A stretch of 64,000 nt of DNA from an uncultured Acidobacteriota bacterium (GCA_963784935.1 CAWATD010000001.1:189411-253410), one strand, 5' to 3'; shown: positions 8,593 to 64,000, counted from the first letter of the stretch. The notes: a model not told the origin generated them from the sequence alone. Numbers and translations: made by a program.

Positions 8593-9374
8593 GAGTTGGA
8601 CCAGGCCGGCGGCCGGCGCTCGAGAAACGCCGTCAGCCCCTCGATGGGGTCTCGGTGCGCCATCAGATCCTCGAGGTACTGCTTCTCGAGGACGGGCAGG
8701 TCGTTCGACAGGGCCGCGGCGAGAAATCTCCGCGAGGCGCGCCAGGCCGCGCGCAGGGCCACGGCGGACTTGTCCGCCAGGGTTTCCTGGAACCAGCGCT
8801 GCAGTTCCGCCTCCGCGTCGTAAATGCACCGGTCGATGAGGCCCCACGCCGCCGCGCCCTGCGCGTCGAACGTGTCGCCCGCGACGATCAGCTGCGTGGC
8901 GCGCGCGCCCGTCGTCCGCCACGGAAGCGCGATCGCCGCCAACGGCGGAAAGACCCCGAGCCGCGTCTCCGGCACGCCGAAGCGCGCGGAGGGCTCCGCG
9001 ACGACCATGCCGCACCAGAGGGCGAGCTCGAAGGCGCCGCCGAGGCACTGCCCCCGGACGACGGCGGCCGTCGGGGCCGAGAGCGCCTCGAGGTCCCGGA
9101 AGAGGCCGTGGAACGCGGGCAGGAGCTCGGTCACCTTGCCCGGAAGGTGCTCCTGCACCGACGCGCCGAAGCTGAAGTGGTCGCCCGCGCCCTCGAAGAC
9201 GACGAGCTTCAACGGCCCCGGGTCCTTCGCCAGCTCCCGCAGGCGGGCGCGGACCGCGGAGATCATCTCGAGATCCAGGACGTTGGCCTTGGGCCGGTCG
9301 AACAGGATCCTCTGGATCTGTCCCGATCGCTCCACGGCGCATCGGATGGGCGAGGCTGCGACGGATGCGGTCAT
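8589..9374 (-). CDS. dch: crotonase-family enzyme, probably cyclohexa-1,5-diene-1-carbonyl-CoA hydratase
   Basis: 261-aa enoyl-CoA hydratase fold (FEGAGDHFSFGASV, GQCLGGAFELAL). Its position directly upstream of bcrC matches the Thauera arrangement. Confidence 0.7.
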   Translation of the reverse strand: MTASVAASPIRCAVERSGQIQRILFDRPKANVLDLEMISAVRARLRELAKDPGPLKLVVFEGAGDHFSFGASVQEHLPGKVTELLPAFHGLFRDLEALSAPTAAVVRGQCLGGAFELALWCGMVVAEPSARFGVPETRLGVFPPLAAIALPWRTTGARATQLIVAGDTFDAQGAAAWGLIDRCIYDAEAELQRWFQETLADKSAVALRAAWRASRRFLAAALSNDLPVLEKQYLEDLMAHRDPIEGLTAFLERRPPAWSNS

Positions 9375-45157: not shown

Positions 45158-45499
45158 CGGATGACCGCTGCGTCGATTCTATGTCGTGGGGAGCAGTCTG
45201 GGCGGGGCCGCCCGAAACCACGTGAGAGTCGCATCCGCTATCGGGAACGATACTCGTCGCGCTTGCGGACCGCTGCACGGTGCCGGTCGGCGCTCCTGAA
45301 ATGGTGGACAGGTCATGTCCGCGCCCGAGTCGTCAGCGTTGCCGCGGCCCTGTGACCCGGAGCAAGAGAGTCCTTCAGGAACTTGACGATTTCGGCAAGG
45401 GTCGGCGCCAACGACTAGCAACCGAGCGGCCTGACATCTTGGGAGAACTTTCTGCAGAGCCCGTCGTAACTCTTGTAGTCAATCGACAGGAGGGACGAC

Positions 45500-46465
45500 A
45501 TGAAGCGAAGAGAATTCCTGGCGGCATCGGCGACGGCCGGAATCCTTGCGGCGTTGCCGCGTTCGGTTTTCGGACAGACCCCCGCGGCCGGGAGAACCGC
45601 CGGCGCGGCGAAAGGCGCTGAAAACCCGTCCCCCGCGCTCGCACCCCCCCTGAAAGCACCCGCACGCGGCAGCATCCCCGTCGCCTTTCTCCTTTCGGAG
45701 GGCGCGGTGATGATCGATTTCGCGGGACCCTGGGAGGTCTTCCAGGACGTCTACGTGCCGTCGCGCGGCGCGGACATGGACGACCAGATGCCCTTTCGCC
45801 TCTATACGGTGTCCGAAACCACGAAGCCCATCCGAGCTTCGGGGGGCCTTCAGGTCGTGCCGGACTACACGTTCCAGGATGCGCCGCCACCGAAAGTCAT
45901 CGTGATTCCGGCTCAAAAAGGCAGCCCTGGAGCGCAGGACTGGATTCGCAAGGCGGCGACGAGCGCCGACGTCACGATGTCGGTGTGCACCGGCGCCTTC
46001 CTCCTGGCGGGCGCCGGCCTCCTGTCGGGAAAGGCCGCTACCACCCACCACTCGTCTTACAAGACCTTCGCGATGCAATTTCCGGACATCCAAGTCCGGC
46101 GCGGAGCTCGCTTCGTCGACGAGGGCAGCCTCGCCAGCGCGGGCGGCCTGACATCCGGAATCGACCTGGCCCTTCACATCGTGGAAAGGTATTTCGGCCG
46201 CAAGGTGGCGAGCGACACCGCCTACCAGATGGAGTACCAGGGCCAGGGATGGATGAAAGCCGATTCGAACGCCATTTACGCGAAACGACTCGTCTCCACC
46301 GACGCCCATCCTCTCTGTCCCGTATGCGAGATGGAAGTCGATCCGGCGACGGCTCCGAGGTCCGCGCTCAAGAGCAAGACCTACTATTTCTGCTCCGCTG
46401 ACCACAAACAACAGTTCGACGCGGCGCCGGAGAAGTGGCCGGCCGCTTCTCCGAAGAAAGACTAG
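45500..46465 (+). CDS. Tat-exported DJ-1/PfpI-family protein with C-terminal YHS domain
   Basis: Has a MKRREFLAASATAGILA twin-arginine signal, a MSVCTGAFLLAGAGLL nucleophile elbow, and a CPVCEMEVD...YYFCSADHKQQFDAAPEKW YHS/TRASH-type motif. Confidence 0.8.
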   Translation: MKRREFLAASATAGILAALPRSVFGQTPAAGRTAGAAKGAENPSPALAPPLKAPARGSIPVAFLLSEGAVMIDFAGPWEVFQDVYVPSRGADMDDQMPFRLYTVSETTKPIRASGGLQVVPDYTFQDAPPPKVIVIPAQKGSPGAQDWIRKAATSADVTMSVCTGAFLLAGAGLLSGKAATTHHSSYKTFAMQFPDIQVRRGARFVDEGSLASAGGLTSGIDLALHIVERYFGRKVASDTAYQMEYQGQGWMKADSNAIYAKRLVSTDAHPLCPVCEMEVDPATAPRSALKSKTYYFCSADHKQQFDAAPEKWPAASPKKD

Positions 46466-54435: not shown

Positions 54436-57114
54436 CTACCTCTCGGACGACTGGGAGTCCTGGGCCCTGTGAAGGCACGCCGCGAGTCTTTCGCCGAGCG
54501 CCTTGACGTTCGCCTCTTCGTCCATGACCGAGGAGTGGTCGCCCGCAACCTCGTAAACCTCGACGTCTTCGCCGCAGAGCTCGACCCATCCCAGGTGCGG
54601 GGTAGCGACCGTTGCTGGGTAGGGGCCCTTCCAGCGATCCTTCGCTCGGAAAAGCGTCACTCGGCCTTCATAGAACTTCGGGAACATACCGATCGGCTGC
54701 CCGATGATTCGCCTCGAGGACCTCACGCTCTGCCGTTCGCAAGGGGCGGAAAAACGCGTCGTAAACGCGCACGAGAGCACGGACCATGAGCAGTAGCAGG
54801 GTTCGCGCTCGCCGAAGCAGATACGAGGGCTTCTCCCTCGCACCGAGTCTTCTTCAAGGCTTCGAGGTGGATCCGCGTCCTCGACGTGCAAACTCGAGAC
54901 GCGTCGGTCGAGCGGTCCTGGGAAGGAAAATTCGCCGCATCGAAGAAAGCGAGCAAGGCCGATCCTCTCGCCCTCCGCCCGCAGCCGCCGGGCCATCTCG
55001 AAGGCGACTTTTCCGCCGAAGGAATGGCCGCCCAGGTAATACGGCCCTTTCGGCTGAAATTCGCGGACTTCACGAAGGTAGTGCGCCGCCATCTCTTCGA
55101 CGGTCTCGTAGGGCCGTCGTTTTCCATCCAGACCCTGGGCCTGGAGCCCGTAGAAGGGCTGATCCAGACCAAGGACCAGGGCGAGCTGCCGGAAGTAGAC
55201 GATTCCGCCGATTGCGTGGACGCAGAAGAACGGGGGTCTCGTCCCTTTCGGCTGGATCGCGACGAGTGAAGGGAGCGGGCGCCTTGAGTCCCTCCTCTCC
55301 CGGAGCATCTCAGCCAGCTCCGCGACCGTGGGAGCCCGAAAAATCGTCGCCAACGCCACTTGCCGGCCGAGCTGCTTCTCGACTTGCGCCGCAAGCTGAG
55401 CGGCCAGCAGCGAGTGTCCGCCGAGATCGAAGAAGTTGTCGTGAATTCCGACCCTCTCGAGGCCCAGGATCTCGCGCCAGATTCGGGCGATCTTCGCCTC
55501 GACCGAGTTTCGAGGCGGGACGAAGGTGCCCTGGAGCTCCGGCCGAGACGTGTCCGGTACGGGAAGCGCGTTGCGGTCCATCTTGCCGGTCGCGGTCCTT
55601 GGAAGCGCGTCCACGAAGAGGAACAGAGCGGGGACCATCCACTCCGAGAGCTGCTCTGAAAGGGCCTGGCGCATTGCAGCCCCTTCGGGACGGTCCGGGC
55701 CCGACGCGACCACGTACGCGATCAGCCGAACCCCGCCCGGGCCTTCGCGGGCCGCGACGGCGGCCTCGCGGACTCCCGGGAGCGCGTTGACGGCCGCTTC
55801 GATTTCCATGAGCTCGACCCAGTGACCGCGGATCTTCATTCGTGAGTCCGCGCGACCGACATACAGGAGGCAGCCGTCGGGCAGCAGCCGGCCGAGGTCT
55901 CCGCTCCGGAACATTCGCGTGCCCTCGCGGCCGGGGACCGGGACGAACGCCTCCGCTGTCAGATCGGGTCTTTTCCAGTACCCGAGCGCGAGCGTGCGTG
56001 AGACGATGGCGATCTCCCCCGTGTCCGCGGATGTCGGGACGCCCACCTCGTCGAGCAGCAGGACCTCGGTCCCGTCGACGGCGTACCCGAGCGGCGCGAT
56101 CGGCGTCGGACACACCGAATCGTGATCGGCGAACCACTGCCGAATCACGTTCATTTCGGTCGAGCCGAGGCCGACGTGAAAGAGGCAGGTTCTCGGGAAA
56201 CGCTCCCGATACAGGTCGAAGTCCGAGGAGAGCACCGGCTCGCCGCCGAGCTTGATCAGGCGCAGGCGGGAGAGATCCTCGCTGCCATCGAGCGAAGCGG
56301 CGAGCTGTCGGAAGAGGCTCGGGACGCAATGGAGGATCGTGATTCCTTCCTCCACGAGAAAAAGCCGGAGACGCAGCAGCCCGCCTTCCGGCAGTGAAAA
56401 GGGGCAAACGGCCGCGCCGTTGAGGAGCGCGCCGTAGACGTCCGAGACGGAGGCGCCGAAGCTGCAGGAGGACAGCAGGGTCAGCCGGTCGTCCGGCACG
56501 ATTCCGAGGCCGTCCGACAGCTTCAGGACGTTGTGCAGAAGGTTGCGATGGCTCTGCATGACTCCCTTTGGCCTGCCCGTCGAGCCGGAAGTGAACAGGA
56601 CGTACGCGAGGTCGTCCGGCGAGACGGCCATGCCGAGATCGTCGAACGGGCCGTGGGTGGCGATCTCTTCGACTCGCACGATCCGCGCCGCCTCAGCTCC
56701 CATTCGTGCGGCGTCGGCGGCGCCGCCTCGGTCCGTCAGGATCACGGCCGCGTCCGCCTCGCCGAGGATGGCGTGCAGCCGTCCAGGCCCGAGAGCAGGG
56801 TCGAGCGGCACATAGAAACGGCCCGCCTTGAGCGTGGCGAGCATCGCCGCAAAGAGGGTCGCTCCGGCAGGGAGCCACAGCGCGACCGGACGACCCGAGT
56901 CGGAGAAGGCCTGCAGGCCCCTGGCAATTCGATTGGCGGTCGCGTTGAGCTCTGCGTACGTCCAGTGCTGACCTGACGCACGCACCGCAACCCGATCCGG
57001 GTGGGCGCGGACGACGCCCTCGAATCGGCGCGCCACCGATTGCTCGATCCCGCCTGTGGCAGGGGCCGGTAGCCGGCGCGCGGGAGAAATGCGCCGAGAC
57101 TCGGCGCCGGACAT
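54436..57114 (-). CDS. NRPS-like tridomain enzyme: adenylation - thiolation - thioesterase (no condensation domain); three frame slips in the TE domain
   Basis: Start at MSGAESRR in frame in track ORF 54436..57723. A-domain cores are LAYVLFTSGSTGRPKGV, SFGASVSDVYGALLNGA (A4 with Gly instead of Asp), FRSGDLGR, GRADSRMKIRG and LPRTATGKMDR. The T domain has FFDLGGHSLLA. The TE domain has GHSFGG and GDHSSVM. Confidence 0.85.
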   Translation of the reverse strand: MSGAESRRISPARRLPAPATGGIEQSVARRFEGVVRAHPDRVAVRASGQHWTYAELNATANRIARGLQAFSDSGRPVALWLPAGATLFAAMLATLKAGRFYVPLDPALGPGRLHAILGEADAAVILTDRGGAADAARMGAEAARIVRVEEIATHGPFDDLGMAVSPDDLAYVLFTSGSTGRPKGVMQSHRNLLHNVLKLSDGLGIVPDDRLTLLSSCSFGASVSDVYGALLNGAAVCPFSLPEGGLLRLRLFLVEEGITILHCVPSLFRQLAASLDGSEDLSRLRLIKLGGEPVLSSDFDLYRERFPRTCLFHVGLGSTEMNVIRQWFADHDSVCPTPIAPLGYAVDGTEVLLLDEVGVPTSADTGEIAIVSRTLALGYWKRPDLTAEAFVPVPGREGTRMFRSGDLGRLLPDGCLLYVGRADSRMKIRGHWVELMEIEAAVNALPGVREAAVAAREGPGGVRLIAYVVASGPDRPEGAAMRQALSEQLSEWMVPALFLFVDALPRTATGKMDRNALPVPDTSRPELQGTFVPPRNSVEAKIARIWREILGLERVGIHDNFFDLGGHSLLAAQLAAQVEKQLGRQVALATIFRAPTVAELAEMLRERRDSRRPLPSLVAIQPKGTRPPFFCVHAIGGIVYFRQLALVLGLDQPFYGLQAQGLDGKRRPYETVEEMAAHYLREVREFQPKGPYYLGGHSFGGKVAFEMARRLRAEGERIGLARFLRCGEFSFPGPLDRRVSSLHVEDADPPRSLEEDSVRGRSPRICFGEREPCYCSWSVLSCAFTTRFSAPCERQSVRSSRRIIGQPIGMFPKFYEGRVTLFRAKDRWKGPYPATVATPHLGWVELCGEDVEVYEVAGDHSSVMDEEANVKALGERLAACLHRAQDSQSSER

Positions 57115-59126
57115 CACGTCGCCCCGTACACGGCCTGCGAGCGCGTGAAGAACTCCCGCGCCCCCGGCCCGTGCTCCGGCGGACCGATGCCGGACGCTTT
57201 CCAGCCGCCGAACGGAGCGAAGGCGTCGGCGTCGGCGGTGGCCTCGTCGAGCTTGAGGATTCCGGCGCGGGCCTGCTCCAGAAACGAGCTGCGTTGCTCC
57301 GCCGATCCGCCGAAGAGGGCCGCCACGAGGCCCTGCCGAACGCCGTTGCAGAGCGCGAGCGCCTCGGAAAAGTCGGCCGCCCGCTGGACCACGAGAACCG
57401 GCCCGAACGTCTCCTCGCCGACGATTTCGCTGCCCGGCGCGGCGCCGAGGACGAGCGTCGGCGGATGGTAAGCCCCGATCTCCCGCAGCGCGCCGAACGC
57501 CGGAGCCCCGGAGTGCGGCGCAAGAATCGAGACCGCGCTCTCCCGCGCGCGCTCCAGGACCGCGGCAACACGCCGGCACGCCGCATCGGAGAGAAGCGGC
57601 CCCGCTTCGGTCTCCGGCTCCAGCGGATCGCCGCACCGCGTGCGCTCGGTCGCGGCGACGAGCTCGCCGCAAAATTCGTCGTACACGCGCGCATCGACGA
57701 TCGCCCGCCGGTTGGCGGTGCATCGCTGCCCGGCGAAGGAGAACGCGCCCCTCGCGATGAGCGAGGCTGCGCGCGGCAAATCGGCGCCCTGCCAGACGAT
57801 CGCCGCGTTATTGCCGCCCAGCTCCGCCTGGAGCGGGATGCGGCGGGCGGCGCAGATCTCCTGGGCGGCCCAGCCGGCCCGTGACGAGCCCGAGATCGAA
57901 ACGCCTTCGACCCCGGAAGTGCGCATCAGAGCGCCGGCCGTCGCACGGTCGCCCGCAAGAAGGCCGACCACGCCACTCGGCACATCGGCCTGCCGCAGAA
58001 GCGCCAGCAGATGCAGGGCGATTCGCGTAGCCGCCGGCGCGGGCTTCCACACGACGGCGTTCGAGAAGGCGAGGGCCGGCGCGATCTTGCCGATCGGAAT
58101 GGCGATCGGATTGTTCCAGGGTGTCACGACCGCGACGACTCCGAGCGGGCGCCGTCGTGCGAAGGAGCCCGGTCCACAGCGCAGGGACACGGTCTCTTCC
58201 GCGGCCGCGATGGAGCGCAGAAGCCCGGCCGAGCGCCGGACCTCGGCCCGCCCCAGCTGCAGGGGCTTGCCGACGTCCTCCGCCATCTCCCGCGCCAGCG
58301 GCTCCGCTTCCGACTCGAGCTTCTCCGCCAGCCGCTTCAGACACGCCACGCGCGCGGCGTAGCCCGCGGAGGCCCAGCCGTGCAGAGCCTCGCCGGCGGC
58401 GCTCACCGCCGCGGAAGCCTCTGCCTGGCCGGCAGCGGGAACGCGGAAGAGTTGACGGTCGCGCCGGCGCGGCGCGAAGTGAACGATCTCGGGAACCGCG
58501 GAGGGCCGGAGCGCACGTCCCCCGATCACCGCGGCCGGCAGCCGTTCCCCCTGTACGGCCAGGACCGCCGCACCGCTCCCGCACCGGCGAAGAATTGCCT
58601 CGACCGGCACGAAGCGCACGGCGCGGCCCTCGAGGTATCGCTCGGTGATTGCGGCGTGGATCGGATCGTCGCTCCCGACCGCGTCCTCCGCCACCAGGAC
58701 CTCGAGGCGGCGCGCGTATGCGTCGAGCACCGTGGCGCGCACACAGCCGTGGAGATGGACACCGGCCACGATGAGCGTGTCGGGCTGGATGGCGGACAGG
58801 ATCCTGTCGAGCTCGCCGGTGGAGAAGGCGGAAAAGTCGGTCTTGTCAACGACTCTCTCGGCCTCTCCCGGCTGCAGGGATGCGGGCGGATCATGCCCGA
58901 CCGTGCCGCGGACGCACGTCCACCGCTCGAGTGCCTTCCAGTGGGGCATCCGATCGTCGCGCGCCCGGTCGACCGTCGTCATCGCGTGGACGACCGCGAT
59001 GCCGAGAGCGCGGGCCCCGGAGAGCAGACGCGTCGCCTGCTCGATGACTTCGCCGGCGGCGGGCTCGAGGCCAGGCGCGCCGAGAAAATCGTTCTGCAGG
59101 TCAACCAGGAGAAGGAGCGGCCTCAT
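57114..59126 (-). CDS. fusion protein: isochorismatase-family cysteine hydrolase (N) + aldehyde dehydrogenase (C)
   Basis: Start at MRPLLLLVDLQNDF inside track ORF 57114..59273, with an ATGA overlap with the upstream gene. Has IVAGVHLHGCVRATVLDA (cysteine hydrolase). Has VTPWNNP, ELGGNNA and FAGQRCTA (ALDH catalytic Cys). The stop overlaps the NRPS-like start by 1 nt. Confidence 0.8.
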   Translation of the reverse strand: MRPLLLLVDLQNDFLGAPGLEPAAGEVIEQATRLLSGARALGIAVVHAMTTVDRARDDRMPHWKALERWTCVRGTVGHDPPASLQPGEAERVVDKTDFSAFSTGELDRILSAIQPDTLIVAGVHLHGCVRATVLDAYARRLEVLVAEDAVGSDDPIHAAITERYLEGRAVRFVPVEAILRRCGSGAAVLAVQGERLPAAVIGGRALRPSAVPEIVHFAPRRRDRQLFRVPAAGQAEASAAVSAAGEALHGWASAGYAARVACLKRLAEKLESEAEPLAREMAEDVGKPLQLGRAEVRRSAGLLRSIAAAEETVSLRCGPGSFARRRPLGVVAVVTPWNNPIAIPIGKIAPALAFSNAVVWKPAPAATRIALHLLALLRQADVPSGVVGLLAGDRATAGALMRTSGVEGVSISGSSRAGWAAQEICAARRIPLQAELGGNNAAIVWQGADLPRAASLIARGAFSFAGQRCTANRRAIVDARVYDEFCGELVAATERTRCGDPLEPETEAGPLLSDAACRRVAAVLERARESAVSILAPHSGAPAFGALREIGAYHPPTLVLGAAPGSEIVGEETFGPVLVVQRAADFSEALALCNGVRQGLVAALFGGSAEQRSSFLEQARAGILKLDEATADADAFAPFGGWKASGIGPPEHGPGAREFFTRSQAVYGAT

Positions 59127-60283
59127 CGCCGCGAGGGGTGCGCAATCTGTTCCACTGCCGACGCAATGCGTTCGCCCACCTCCCTCGTCCCGACGAGGGA
59201 GGTGCCTTCCTCGGCCATGTCGAACGTGCGAAAGCCCAGACGGAGGACCTCCTCGACACCCTGCTCGATCCACGCGGCCTCCCGCCAGAGGCCGAAACTT
59301 TCGCGCAGCATCATCGCCAGCGACTGGATCTGGCCGATCGGGTTCGCGCGGTCTTCACCGGCGATGTCCGCTGCCCCACCGTGGTTGGTCTGGTAGACAG
59401 CGGCCCCCTGCGCCGAGAAGTTGCCCGAGTAAGAAAGGCCGCGCGAGCCGAGGAGCACCGCCGCGACGTCCGCCAGCACGTCGCCGAAGAGGTTGTCCGC
59501 AACGACGACGTCAAACATCGACGGGCACTGGACCAGCTGGTAGGCCACGAGATCGATGTTCACGAATGCGACACGCAATCCGGCACGGGCGGCCACGTCT
59601 TCCGCGGTCTCCCGCCACAGGGCGGTCAGTGCGGGGAGCCCGCCATCTTTGACGACGACCGTCAACATTTTTCGTCGACGTGTCGCAAGGACCGCGCCAA
59701 CCTCCACGATCCGCCGGACCTCGCGCTCGCTGTAGCGAAAGGTGTGCTCACACACTCGCCCCTCGCCCGACCGTGTACTCTGACGGGCTTCACCGAAGTA
59801 CATGCCGCCGGCGTTCTCGCGGACGATGAGGATATCCGTGCCGCGGACGGCGGCGGCCTTGAGCCGGCCGAGGTGGGCGAAGGCTTCCGAGACGAAAACA
59901 GGGCTGATCTTGCAGAAGAGGTCGAAGCGACGCCGCAGCTCGTAAACGAACCGCCCGCCACCAGGACCCGCCAGGATCGCGCCGTCGTCTGCGAAGACCG
60001 ATTCGCAGAACTTCACGACTCCGTCGGGCATTGGCTGGCCCGTGAGACGCTCGGCATCCCGTCCGATCTCGCCGCCAAACCGAAGCTCGAAGCGAACGCC
60101 GCCGGCCCGTTCAATGACCGGCAGCAGGCCCAGCGCCGCGCCGATGACCTCCGGACCGATGCCCTCTCCGGGCAGGATTCCGATCGTGCAGACGCCATTC
60201 TTTGCACTCGCTTCGCGCCCTTGCGCAAAGACTGCGCTCGTCCACCGGGCCCGCTCCCGAAGCACGCCGCCGCTCGGCTCCAC
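59123..60283 (-). CDS. isocitrate/isopropylmalate dehydrogenase-family beta-decarboxylating dehydrogenase
   Basis: GTG start 7 nt behind AAGGAG. Has ILPGEGIGPEV, IVRENAGGMYFG and DNLFGDVLADVAA motifs. 386 aa. Confidence 0.8.
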   Translation of the reverse strand: MEPSGGVLRERARWTSAVFAQGREASAKNGVCTIGILPGEGIGPEVIGAALGLLPVIERAGGVRFELRFGGEIGRDAERLTGQPMPDGVVKFCESVFADDGAILAGPGGGRFVYELRRRFDLFCKISPVFVSEAFAHLGRLKAAAVRGTDILIVRENAGGMYFGEARQSTRSGEGRVCEHTFRYSEREVRRIVEVGAVLATRRRKMLTVVVKDGGLPALTALWRETAEDVAARAGLRVAFVNIDLVAYQLVQCPSMFDVVVADNLFGDVLADVAAVLLGSRGLSYSGNFSAQGAAVYQTNHGGAADIAGEDRANPIGQIQSLAMMLRESFGLWREAAWIEQGVEEVLRLGFRTFDMAEEGTSLVGTREVGERIASAVEQIAHPSRR

Positions 60284-60497
60284 GCCTTACTCCTTGTTGA
60301 GGTGCCATAGTCTAGCCTGCCCGATGGGACAGGGGTGTTCGCGGAATCGTCGAATCCCGACCCCCGGCGATCAAGAAACTCGGCCCGGTAATCTCGTAAG
60401 TGGTTCTTTACAAATGATTTCTGGTGGTAGAGCCCGGGCCCGGCTGAGCCTGTTTGGGCATCAGCCAGACAGAATCCAGACCCTGGCTCCGCGCTCG

Positions 60498-61242
60498 CTA
60501 CTCGACCTCGATCGCTCCGAACATTCCGCCGTGGCCCACGCCGCAGACCCGCGTGCAGGCGAAGTTGTAGCGGCCGCGCTGGGCCGGCGTCGGAGTGACC
60601 CGGACGACGTAGTCGGCCCCGGGGGCGACGTCCTGGCCGAGAGATTCCGAGCACGGGAATCGCCGAGACTCCGTGCACGACGTCGGCCGAGCGGAAGGTA
60701 ATCTCGTAGGTCACGCCCGCCGTGAGCCGGATGGGCGGGCCGTCGGGGCCTCCCGGCGAGAACTGATACCGCGAGAGCATGACGAGCAGCGGGACCGTCG
60801 TGCAGCTCGAGAACGCGGACGTGTCGAGGATGGGCGCAAAGGCGGCCCCCTGGGGATTCGAGTAGGTCCGGACGTCGCGGGTCGTCCTATCCGTGACGGT
60901 GATCGTGACGTCGAGGTTCGTCAGGCCGGCGGCGAAGAACCAGTAGTGGCCGTCGCTGCCGCAGCCGTTCAGCGTCTTGACGACGAGCTCGATATTGCTC
61001 GGCTCGAAGAACCAGAAGTAGCCGGACTCCTCGGTCAGGCCGACGGCGTGCCCGCTGCCGGAGGCGCCATCGGGCGTCTCTCCACGTCGCCTCGACCTGA
61101 AAGCGCTCATCGTTCAGACAGAGCACCGACTCGGAAGTGCAGTCGGCGAGGCCGTCCGCCTGCTGGGCGGCGCCTTGCCTCGCCGGCAAGAGCACGGCAA
61201 GGCCGAGCAGGCAAAGGGCGCCGAGGCGGCCTATCGTGGCAT
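60498..61242 (-). CDS. secreted two-domain protein: '...TITVTD...DTSAF' domain + CuA-type cupredoxin domain; about three frame breaks
   Basis: Part 1 is MPR/IGRLGALCLLGLAVLLPA (signal, break near 61233). Part 2 is CTSESVLCLNDERFQVEATWRD (break near 61075). Part 3 is PDGASGSGHAVGLTEESGYFWFFEPSNIELVVKTLNG...LDVTITVTDRTTRDVRTYSNPQGAAFAPILDTSAF...ADVVHGVSAIPVLG (break near 60645). Part 4 is SLGQDVAPG...YNFACTRVCGVGHGGMFGAIEVE, with the stop at 60498. Confidence 0.6.
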
Positions 61243-63866: not shown

Positions 63867-63880
63867 CGTCTCCTTGCGCG

Positions 63881-64000
63881 TCAGAAGGCCGACGTATCGG
63901 CCACGCTCGCCAGAGTCCCGCTGGTGTTGTCATATTTCCGGACGTTTAACGTCTGCGTATCGGTGACCGTGATCGTGTACTCGACGTTCGAGAGCGCCCC
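63881..64000 (-). CDS. 3' end of a gene running off the right edge; same '...TITVTD...DTSAF' domain family as 60498..61242
   Basis: The last 39 codons read GALSNVEYTITVTDTQTLNVRKYDNTSGTLASVADTSAF followed by a stop at 63881-63883. Confidence 0.55.
   Translation of the reverse strand, partial: GALSNVEYTITVTDTQTLNVRKYDNTSGTLASVADTSAF

Follow-up and report, generated by a model that had tools for sequence, protein, structure and literature searches.

What do three translationally coupled genes on the minus strand of a 64,000-nt stretch of DNA from an uncultured Acidobacteriota bacterium (GCA_963784935.1, CAWATD010000001.1:189411-253410; the whole stretch is hereafter the window) make together, and how far does their association reach? 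In order of transcription they encode an NAD-dependent beta-hydroxyacid dehydrogenase resembling isopropylmalate dehydrogenase (IPMDH), a fusion of a cysteine hydrolase to an aldehyde dehydrogenase (ALDH), and an enzyme of the nonribosomal peptide synthetase (NRPS) type. Pfam bears out the domain anatomy proposed in a first-pass annotation of this locus, the third protein having adenylation (A), thiolation (T) and thioesterase (TE) domains and no condensation (C) domain. That annotation had called the operon an orphan, which is right in that it is uncharacterised but not in the sense of unique: the operon is one copy of a widespread, uncharacterised biosynthetic cassette that we found at 81 loci in at least ten phyla.

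The best 80 loci from a one-genome-per-species scan, which gave 275 relatives, were examined, and 81 loci were retained after duplicate removal, their genes being assigned by greedy gene calls. The gene for the IPMDH-like enzyme adjoins the fusion gene in 76 of the 78 assessable loci, and an adenylating enzyme lies no more than 7 kb away in 65 of 75 (87%), either an NRPS of A-T-x architecture (60 loci) or a PaaK/BagE-like ligase (5 loci). The constant unit is IPMDH-like enzyme, hydrolase-ALDH fusion and adenylating enzyme, and the annotation's suggestion that a neighbourhood survey be made has thus been answered by a trio that stays together across many genomes. Relatives that are 84%, 70% and 60% identical carry the trio in the same order between different flanking genes, and a verrucomicrobial relative has the first two genes only. 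Because the flanking genes differ between loci, selection acts on the trio itself. The carriers are soil and water bacteria from Acidobacteriota (Thermoanaerobaculia), Verrucomicrobiota, Planctomycetota, Solirubrobacterales/Thermoleophilia, cyanobacteria, Alpha-, Beta- and Gammaproteobacteria, Myxococcales and others, and include one cultured actinomycete, Smaragdicoccus niigatensis. The annotation knew of no described pathway with this trio, and full-text literature searches likewise gave no published description of the gene combination.

Subsets of loci carry accessory genes for a Rieske/LigXa_C oxygenase, S-adenosylmethionine (SAM) methyltransferases, GT2/GT28 glycosyltransferases, a PhyH-like protein, a HemN-like radical-SAM enzyme, Amidohydro_2 or an ABC exporter. 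None of these is universal among the surveyed loci and none is in the window's operon, but their recurrence suggests a family of variously decorated small products. In an extended form of the cassette, found in three Planctomycetota loci (L049, L058, L066), in Xenococcus (L031) and in L032, genes for the HemN-like enzyme, the Rieske/LigXa_C oxygenase and glycosyltransferases separate the fusion gene from the NRPS gene. Five loci (L034, L045, L052, L064, L085) have no NRPS, and a distant PaaK/BagE-like adenylate-forming enzyme of ~515-620 aa directly follows the fusion gene. The trio occurs on two contigs of one metagenome-assembled genome (MAG; MFD02134.bin.2.169), L007 and L008, in copies 78-80% identical to the window, and the L008 copy gives split matches suggesting frameshifts.

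The adenylation pocket and the enzymes upstream

The first-pass annotation had read the A4 core motif of the A domain as lacking the Asp of amino-acid-activating domains (Asp235 in PheA numbering), and had proposed a non-amino acid substrate. The missing Asp is not a misalignment: in HMMER alignments SFGASVSD aligns with LgrA SFDGSALD and IFDISVAE, which places Gly at the Asp235 position, and Asp is absent there from every one of 56 cassette-linked homologues, nearly all of which have G, A or M. The A5 motif is altered as well, reading GLGSTE in the window with Ser in place of the Pro of NxYGPTE, and across 57 domains this position is S in 30, A in 11, M in 8, L in 4, C in 3, N in 1 and P in none. 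Asp235 contacts the substrate alpha-amino group (PMC11253843; see also PMC10949194); hydroxy-acid A domains have Gly or Ala in its place and the keto-acid domain StsA has Ile, and keto-acid use requires a replaced A5 Pro, which is Met in StsA (PMC11253843). Both changes are described hallmarks of hydroxy- and keto-acid A domains, and together they support a pocket suited to a non-amino acid, one that lacks an alpha-amino group.

The full specificity code, whose extraction the annotation had suggested as a check, is G-A-S-H-K-G-G-V-I-K. Specifically, its positions (PheA numbering) were read from the motifs FDxSVxE (235, 236, 239), x-LPPT (278), LxxGGE (299, 301), NxYGPTExxxx (322, 330, 331) and NGKxDR (517), a mapping based on the sequence of GrsA and checked against the HMMER alignments to LgrA. 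The pattern GASH[KR]GGVIK is kept across acidobacterial A-T-TE genes, and genes of the A-T-C type have the code GQxVR[GA][TS]N[IV]K. At position 299, the fifth of the code, the window has Lys, and nearly all of the 56 homologues have K or R. Acidic substrates are usually marked by basic residues in the code, as in the Asp, Glu and Aad codes, and Lys/Arg at 299 would accordingly imply a second anionic group, so that the pocket suggests a 2-oxo or 2-hydroxy acid whose side chain is anionic. The domain passes TIGR01733 (amino acid adenylation domain; 323.7 bits, cut-off 317.4), and its nearest solved structures are LgrA, PvdL and SrfA-C. In a neighbour-joining tree, which is crude in having no bootstrap support and few outgroups, all cassette-linked A domains fall into one clade, apart from the amino-acid modules that come later in the same assembly lines.

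In the fusion protein, the hydrolase triad D9, K95 and C128 and the ALDH residues N338/N339 (PWNNP), E435 (ELGGNN), C469 (GQRC) and E572 (EETFGP) are invariant among 15 diverse homologues. The ALDH retains the equivalents of N169, E268, C302 and E399 and would therefore be hydrolytic, forming a free acid; its nearest relatives are the CHMS, 2-aminomuconate and succinylglutamate semialdehyde dehydrogenases, which convert a semialdehyde to a dicarboxylate. A CoA- or ACP-acylating ALDH that reduces a thioester was rejected on the presence of E268. For the hydrolase, the best matches are an uncharacterised family member and enzymes of the CSHase (N-carbamoylsarcosine amidase) and biuret-hydrolase types, with PhzD the weakest match listed (E 5e-6). 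Conversion of isochorismate to 2,3-DHB was rejected for want of a nearby isochorismate synthase and because ureido/amide hydrolases are closer relatives of the hydrolase; no gene for a chorismate-binding enzyme was found in any surveyed locus. A nicotinamidase identity was also rejected, since the metal ligands are not conserved, as judged by eye against Mtb PncA. The fusion itself suggests that the hydrolase product may be an unstable aldehyde. More than 2000 full-length homologues share the two-domain architecture; an exact look-up of the window's own fusion protein gave no record, and no PLSDB plasmid record has a full-length fusion.

The dehydrogenase matches PF00180 with 241.5 bits and has LeuB enzymes as its nearest solved structures, but it lies below every NCBIfam equivalog cut-off, including that of LeuB (TIGR00169, 244.1 bits, cut-off 353.2), and a signature, GGG-R[FY]VY[DE]LR, sets its subfamily apart. 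Alignments to the LeuB structures 3u1h and 1vlc place a gap of 9-10 residues before the first substrate Arg and replace Arg104 by Ser. The substrate-loop deletion (9-13 residues relative to LeuB) recurs in 70 of 70 family members, among which Arg104 is replaced by S, V or N and an invariant Lys stands two residues before it. The deleted loop is the one that recognises the isopropyl group (E87-L91 in Thermus LeuB numbering). The equivalents of R94, R132, Y139, K185, D217, D241 and D245 are invariant in all 70, among them the catalytic Tyr and Lys and the metal-binding Asp triad (Y162, K212, D244, D268 and D272 in the window). By its missing loop and replaced Arg104 the enzyme is not a genuine IPMDH, and 3-isopropylmalate or another normal 3-alkylmalate is not its predicted substrate; the invariant catalytic residues nevertheless imply that it should still oxidise, and perhaps decarboxylate, a 2-hydroxy acid. 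The annotation's proposal that an IPMDH-type enzyme supplies a 2-oxo acid thus stays plausible.

A proposed pathway and its rivals

What follows A-T varies between lineages: a TE in Acidobacteria and some others, a C domain in Solirubrobacterales and Verrucomicrobiota, and C-A-T-TE or longer in some Acidobacteriota and Verrucomicrobiota, the second modules having Gly-type (DILQ...) or beta-Ala-type (VDWVVS) codes. Because an acid without an amine can only start a chain, a C domain or Gly/beta-Ala modules downstream would make the loaded acid a starter or cap unit and not a substrate for TdiA-type dimerisation.

We propose, with roughly even confidence, that the cassette makes an acid, that the A domain loads it onto the T domain and that the TE or downstream domains release it or pass it on. 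The first two proteins, whose three catalytic domains have intact active sites, would convert a common metabolite into a non-amino acid with a second anionic group, most likely a short 2-oxo or 2-hydroxy acid of about C3-C6 and presumably a dicarboxylate. One carboxylate would come from the ALDH and the 2-oxo or 2-hydroxy function from the IPMDH-like enzyme, after which the A domain would adenylate the acid and attach it to the T domain in thioester linkage. The TE of this acidobacterial lineage would then release the acyl group, possibly through hydrolysis, cyclisation or transfer to an acceptor; in other lineages the acyl-S-T would be passed to a C domain or to Gly/beta-Ala modules, and small acyl-(amino acid) compounds would result. 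Seen directly are the conserved gene order, the catalytic residues, which are intact, the make-up of the A-domain pocket and the variety of NRPS architectures downstream; the direction of the pathway, the order of its enzymes, the dicarboxylate nature of the acid and the fate of the thioester are what we infer.

Candidate acids run from the tartronate/malate type (C3-C4) to the 2-oxoglutarate/oxalocrotonate type (C5-C6), and speculative routes to them include ureidoglycolate to glyoxylate to oxalate, tartrate to tartronate semialdehyde to tartronate, an aminomuconate-type route, and isocitrate or homoisocitrate to 2-oxoglutarate or 2-oxoadipate. A bolder version, which we consider rather unlikely, is that the cassette represents a novel, phylum-spanning route to small N-acyl amino acids or conjugates capped by a 2-oxo or 2-hydroxy dicarboxylate, the cap being made by a new IPMDH subfamily, an aldehyde-channelling hydrolase-ALDH fusion and a specialised A-domain clade. 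Candidate caps would be oxalyl-, tartronyl-, oxaloacetyl- or 2-oxoglutaryl- on Gly or beta-Ala, and such products might act as 2-oxoglutarate mimics, antimetabolites or metal binders.

Several observations weigh against the proposal that the cassette supplies the acid which the A domain loads. In ~13% of the assessable loci the pair stands without a nearby adenylating enzyme, as in Verrucomicrobiota (L005), Alphaproteobacteria (L082-L084) and further in L020 and L086, so the pair can function, or be encoded, apart from an NRPS. Small residues at positions 235, 236, 239, 301 and 322 of the code would make a roomy pocket, a poor fit to the smallest candidates, oxalate and malonate. None of the candidate routes is favoured by decisive evidence. 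The usual suppliers of a 3-substituted malate are missing, there being no gene for an enzyme like isopropylmalate synthase or homocitrate synthase, or for an aconitase-like isomerase, near the operon; a 2-oxo-acid chain-elongation pathway was rejected on the same absence of synthase and isomerase genes. The TE as assembled lacks its catalytic Asp. Finally, the order of steps could be the reverse, with the cassette enzymes tailoring the released product.

In this reversed scheme, which we think unlikely, the A-T-TE or A-T-C enzyme would make or release a small product from an ordinary metabolite, which the hydrolase, ALDH and IPMDH-like enzymes would afterwards modify, whether to tailor, activate or recycle it. 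The nearest relatives of the hydrolase cleave amides or ureido compounds, and it could cut an amide made by a C domain or TE; nor is the step order fixed by any data. Yet the pair is more strictly conserved than any NRPS type and also accompanies PaaK-like ligases and very different NRPS architectures, so that tailoring enzymes would need to accept very different products, and the A-domain pocket tracks the cassette as one clade, which fits a relation of supplier to consumer.

The pair-only loci, together with the catabolic roles of the ALDH's relatives, would also suit a catabolic or detoxification module for a ureido/amide compound or a hydroxy acid, to which the A-T-TE enzyme is unrelated or only loosely linked. 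We regard this as improbable, given that 87% of assessable loci in at least ten phyla place an adenylating enzyme by the pair despite differing flanks, and that the fusion gene and the A-T-TE gene of the window are translationally coupled through a 1-nt overlap. The same estimate covers the idea that the IPMDH-like enzyme is an inhibitor-resistant LeuB; the substrate loop and Arg104 are missing in all 70 members, which cannot then be functional LeuB copies, and this candidate was ruled out.

The assembled TE raises a different question, namely whether the operon is decaying in this genome. The first-pass annotation had only hinted at misframing, which is here located to 54675-54960: three +1 shifts near 54960, 54846 and 54675, with a net return to the original frame, put roughly 95 codons in the middle of the domain out of frame. 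As assembled, the TE gives 83.3 bits to PF00975 over profile positions 3-94 (of 226); with one base removed near each site it gives 96.9 bits over positions 3-213, and the triad of Ser (GHSFGG), Asp (FFDAANF) and His (GDH) is restored. Alternative frames of the stretch encode ALLAFFDAANFP and GAREKPSYLLRRARTLLL...HRAADRYVPE, both of which match the TE of the orthologues L001 and L007. Three minus-strand genes upstream of the operon, encoding DUF1800-like (~62.5-63.9 kb), DUF1501 (~61.2-62.5 kb) and secreted cupredoxin-like (~60.5-61.2 kb) proteins, each need at least one frameshift as well, and the window seems to carry frequent single-base indel errors. Because these neighbours also need frameshifts, we read the shifts in the TE as assembly indels; they are probably assembly errors rather than gene decay. 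That the TE is a pseudogene through real frameshifts, as three of them within 290 nt and the loss of the catalytic Asp in the assembled frame might suggest, is quite improbable in view of this indel rate: the misframed stretches still code for well-conserved TE sequence with no stop codons in the relevant segments, the close relatives are long-read MAG assemblies (judged from contig names), and the operon is otherwise intact.

As TE nucleophile the window and its two closest relatives, L001 and L007, have Ser (GHS[FL]GG), whereas most of the other acidobacterial orthologues, such as L002, L003, L013, L021 and L030, have Cys (G[ED]C[VM]GG). The first-pass annotation's own model, in which, as in TdiA, AtrA and RalA, an (aryl) alpha-keto acid is loaded and the TE condenses two units into a quinone or furanone, has in its favour the A-T-TE tridomain, the missing Asp235 and an IPMDH-type enzyme that could provide a 2-oxo acid, but is very improbable, because code position 5 is Lys/Arg where quinone synthetases have Ile, Val or Asn (PMC10316625), the A domain passes a bacterial model and has bacterial NRPSs as its nearest structures, no aminotransferase gene lies in or beside the operon or recurs in the 81 related loci, the TE nucleophile varies between Ser and Cys, and dimerisation cannot be the common fate where orthologous A-T units precede C domains or Gly/beta-Ala modules.

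Operon layout and leader

The three coupled minus-strand genes are as the first-pass annotation had described them (Table 1). An ATGA overlap joins the first two at 59126-59123, and the second and third share one nucleotide (57114) in GTGATG, in which the stop TGA occupies 57116-57114 and the start ATG 57114-57112; this translational coupling implies that the three proteins are made together. The strong AAGGAG-GTG start and the less GC-rich upstream stretch that it had pointed out are also borne out, the leader comparing with 67.1% GC for the whole window. The last ~60 nt of the leader, including the palindrome CCTGTCCCATCGGGCAGG, are kept in an alignment of the close relatives L001, L008 and L011. 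The palindrome and TAGACT (60309-60333) sit ~25-50 nt 5′ of the GTG start, and the palindrome may be an operator overlapping the promoter. A simple promoter scan of the leader did not find a sigma-70 consensus, and an Rfam scan of 53.5-60.8 kb at E<=1 matched no riboswitch, leader or other family.

Table 1. Positions of the operon and its features in the window
Feature	Position (nt)	Strand	Size or residues	Basis or remark
Intergenic leader/promoter region	60284-60497	minus	214 bp	58.9% GC
Palindrome CCTGTCCCATCGGGCAGG in leader	60333-60316	minus		sequence inspection
-10-like TAGACT in leader	60314-60309	minus		3′ of palindrome
Ribosome-binding site AAGGAG of gene 1	60295-60290	minus		6 nt before GTG start at 60283
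Gene 1, IPMDH-like NAD-dependent beta-hydroxyacid dehydrogenase	59123-60283	minus	386 aa	PF00180 (Iso_dh)
Gene 2, cysteine hydrolase-ALDH fusion	57114-59126	minus	670 aa	Pfam Isochorismatase + Aldedh
Cysteine hydrolase domain, isochorismatase superfamily	~58665-59117	minus	aa 4-154	Pfam
Hydrolytic NAD(P)-dependent ALDH domain (predicted)	~57129-58463	minus	aa 222-666	Pfam Aldedh (PF00171), 372.6 bits
Gene 3, A-T-TE NRPS-type enzyme	54436-57114	minus	892 aa as assembled	Pfam + NCBIfam
A domain	~55582-57021	minus	aa ~32-511	AMP-binding + AMP-binding_C (Pfam)
T domain	~55303-55494	minus	aa 541-604	PP-binding, GGHSL
TE domain	~54475-55230	minus	aa ~629-880	GHSFGG ... GDH
Out-of-frame TE stretch	~54675-54960	minus		three +1 shifts

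Around the operon, a DJ-1/PfpI-YHS fusion gene lies within ~10 kb both in the window (45479-46465, plus strand) and in the 84%-identical relative L001 (17096-18022), which may be residual synteny. The alignment also shows a tRNA-like sequence (GCGGGCATAGTTCAGCGGTAGAAC...) directly 5′ of the operon copy in L001 (~8600-8680). A similar short domain (…TITVTD…R.Y.N…G…A…DTSAF) ends or occurs in two neighbouring secreted proteins of the window, at 63880-64000 and ~60700-60950 on the minus strand.

Significance and relation to known systems

Most carriers belong to uncultured soil or freshwater lineages whose chemistry is almost unknown (Thermoanaerobaculia, Verrucomicrobiota, Planctomycetota, Solirubrobacterales), and in at least ten phyla an A-domain clade with one signature (no Asp235, no A5 Pro, Lys/Arg299) is tied to a fixed two-gene precursor cassette. 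This makes the cassette a well-defined target for genome mining that points to a family of small natural products, and the three-gene form in the window is its simplest version to reconstitute. Identifying the acid would extend NRPS specificity prediction by a new substrate class, give functions to a new IPMDH subfamily and to a fusion protein with more than 2000 members, and bring to light small metabolites, perhaps an ecologically common family.

Each protein of the cassette has known counterparts from which it departs in a defined way. The IPMDH-like enzyme shares with LeuB and with the homoisocitrate, tartrate and D-malate dehydrogenases the PF00180 fold, the catalytic Tyr and Lys, three Asp and the NAD-type Asp278. 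Two of the three substrate Arg of LeuB are invariant in it and only the second, Arg104, is replaced (by Ser, Val or Asn), and unlike LeuB and its pathway homologues it has no synthase or isomerase partner genes beside it. The hydrolase has the D-K-C triad of, and significant sequence similarity to, N-carbamoylsarcosine amidase, biuret hydrolase, RutB and EntB/PhzD, and the ALDH has the residues N169, E268, C302 and E399 of, and significant similarity to, HpaE, AMSDH, AstD and KGSADH; in contrast to these known enzymes the cassette has both activities in one polypeptide, and no equivalog cut-off is reached.

The NRPS-type enzyme resembles TdiA, AtrA, RalA and their relatives in its A-T-TE order without a C domain and in its predicted non-amino-acid substrate. 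It differs from them at code position 5 and in having no partner aminotransferase, its orthologues have C domains or further modules, and its A domain is of the bacterial NRPS type by sequence. Among A domains for keto and hydroxy acids, EnSyn has the same Asp235 to Gly change as the window, and StsA has Met at the A5 Pro position, as do 8 cassette homologues, where the window has Ser. StsA and EnSyn have an embedded ketoreductase domain and stand in internal modules, whereas the cassette enzyme has no such domain and its A domain occupies the starter position. The pocket of the StsA/EnSyn type takes a branched alkyl chain, whereas His278 and Lys/Arg299 of the cassette pocket would suit an anionic side chain, and unlike StsA and EnSyn the cassette A domain is tied to a dedicated two-gene precursor cassette. 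The loading of a non-amino acid by an NRPS is thus known; what is new is the dedicated precursor cassette together with the A-domain signature.

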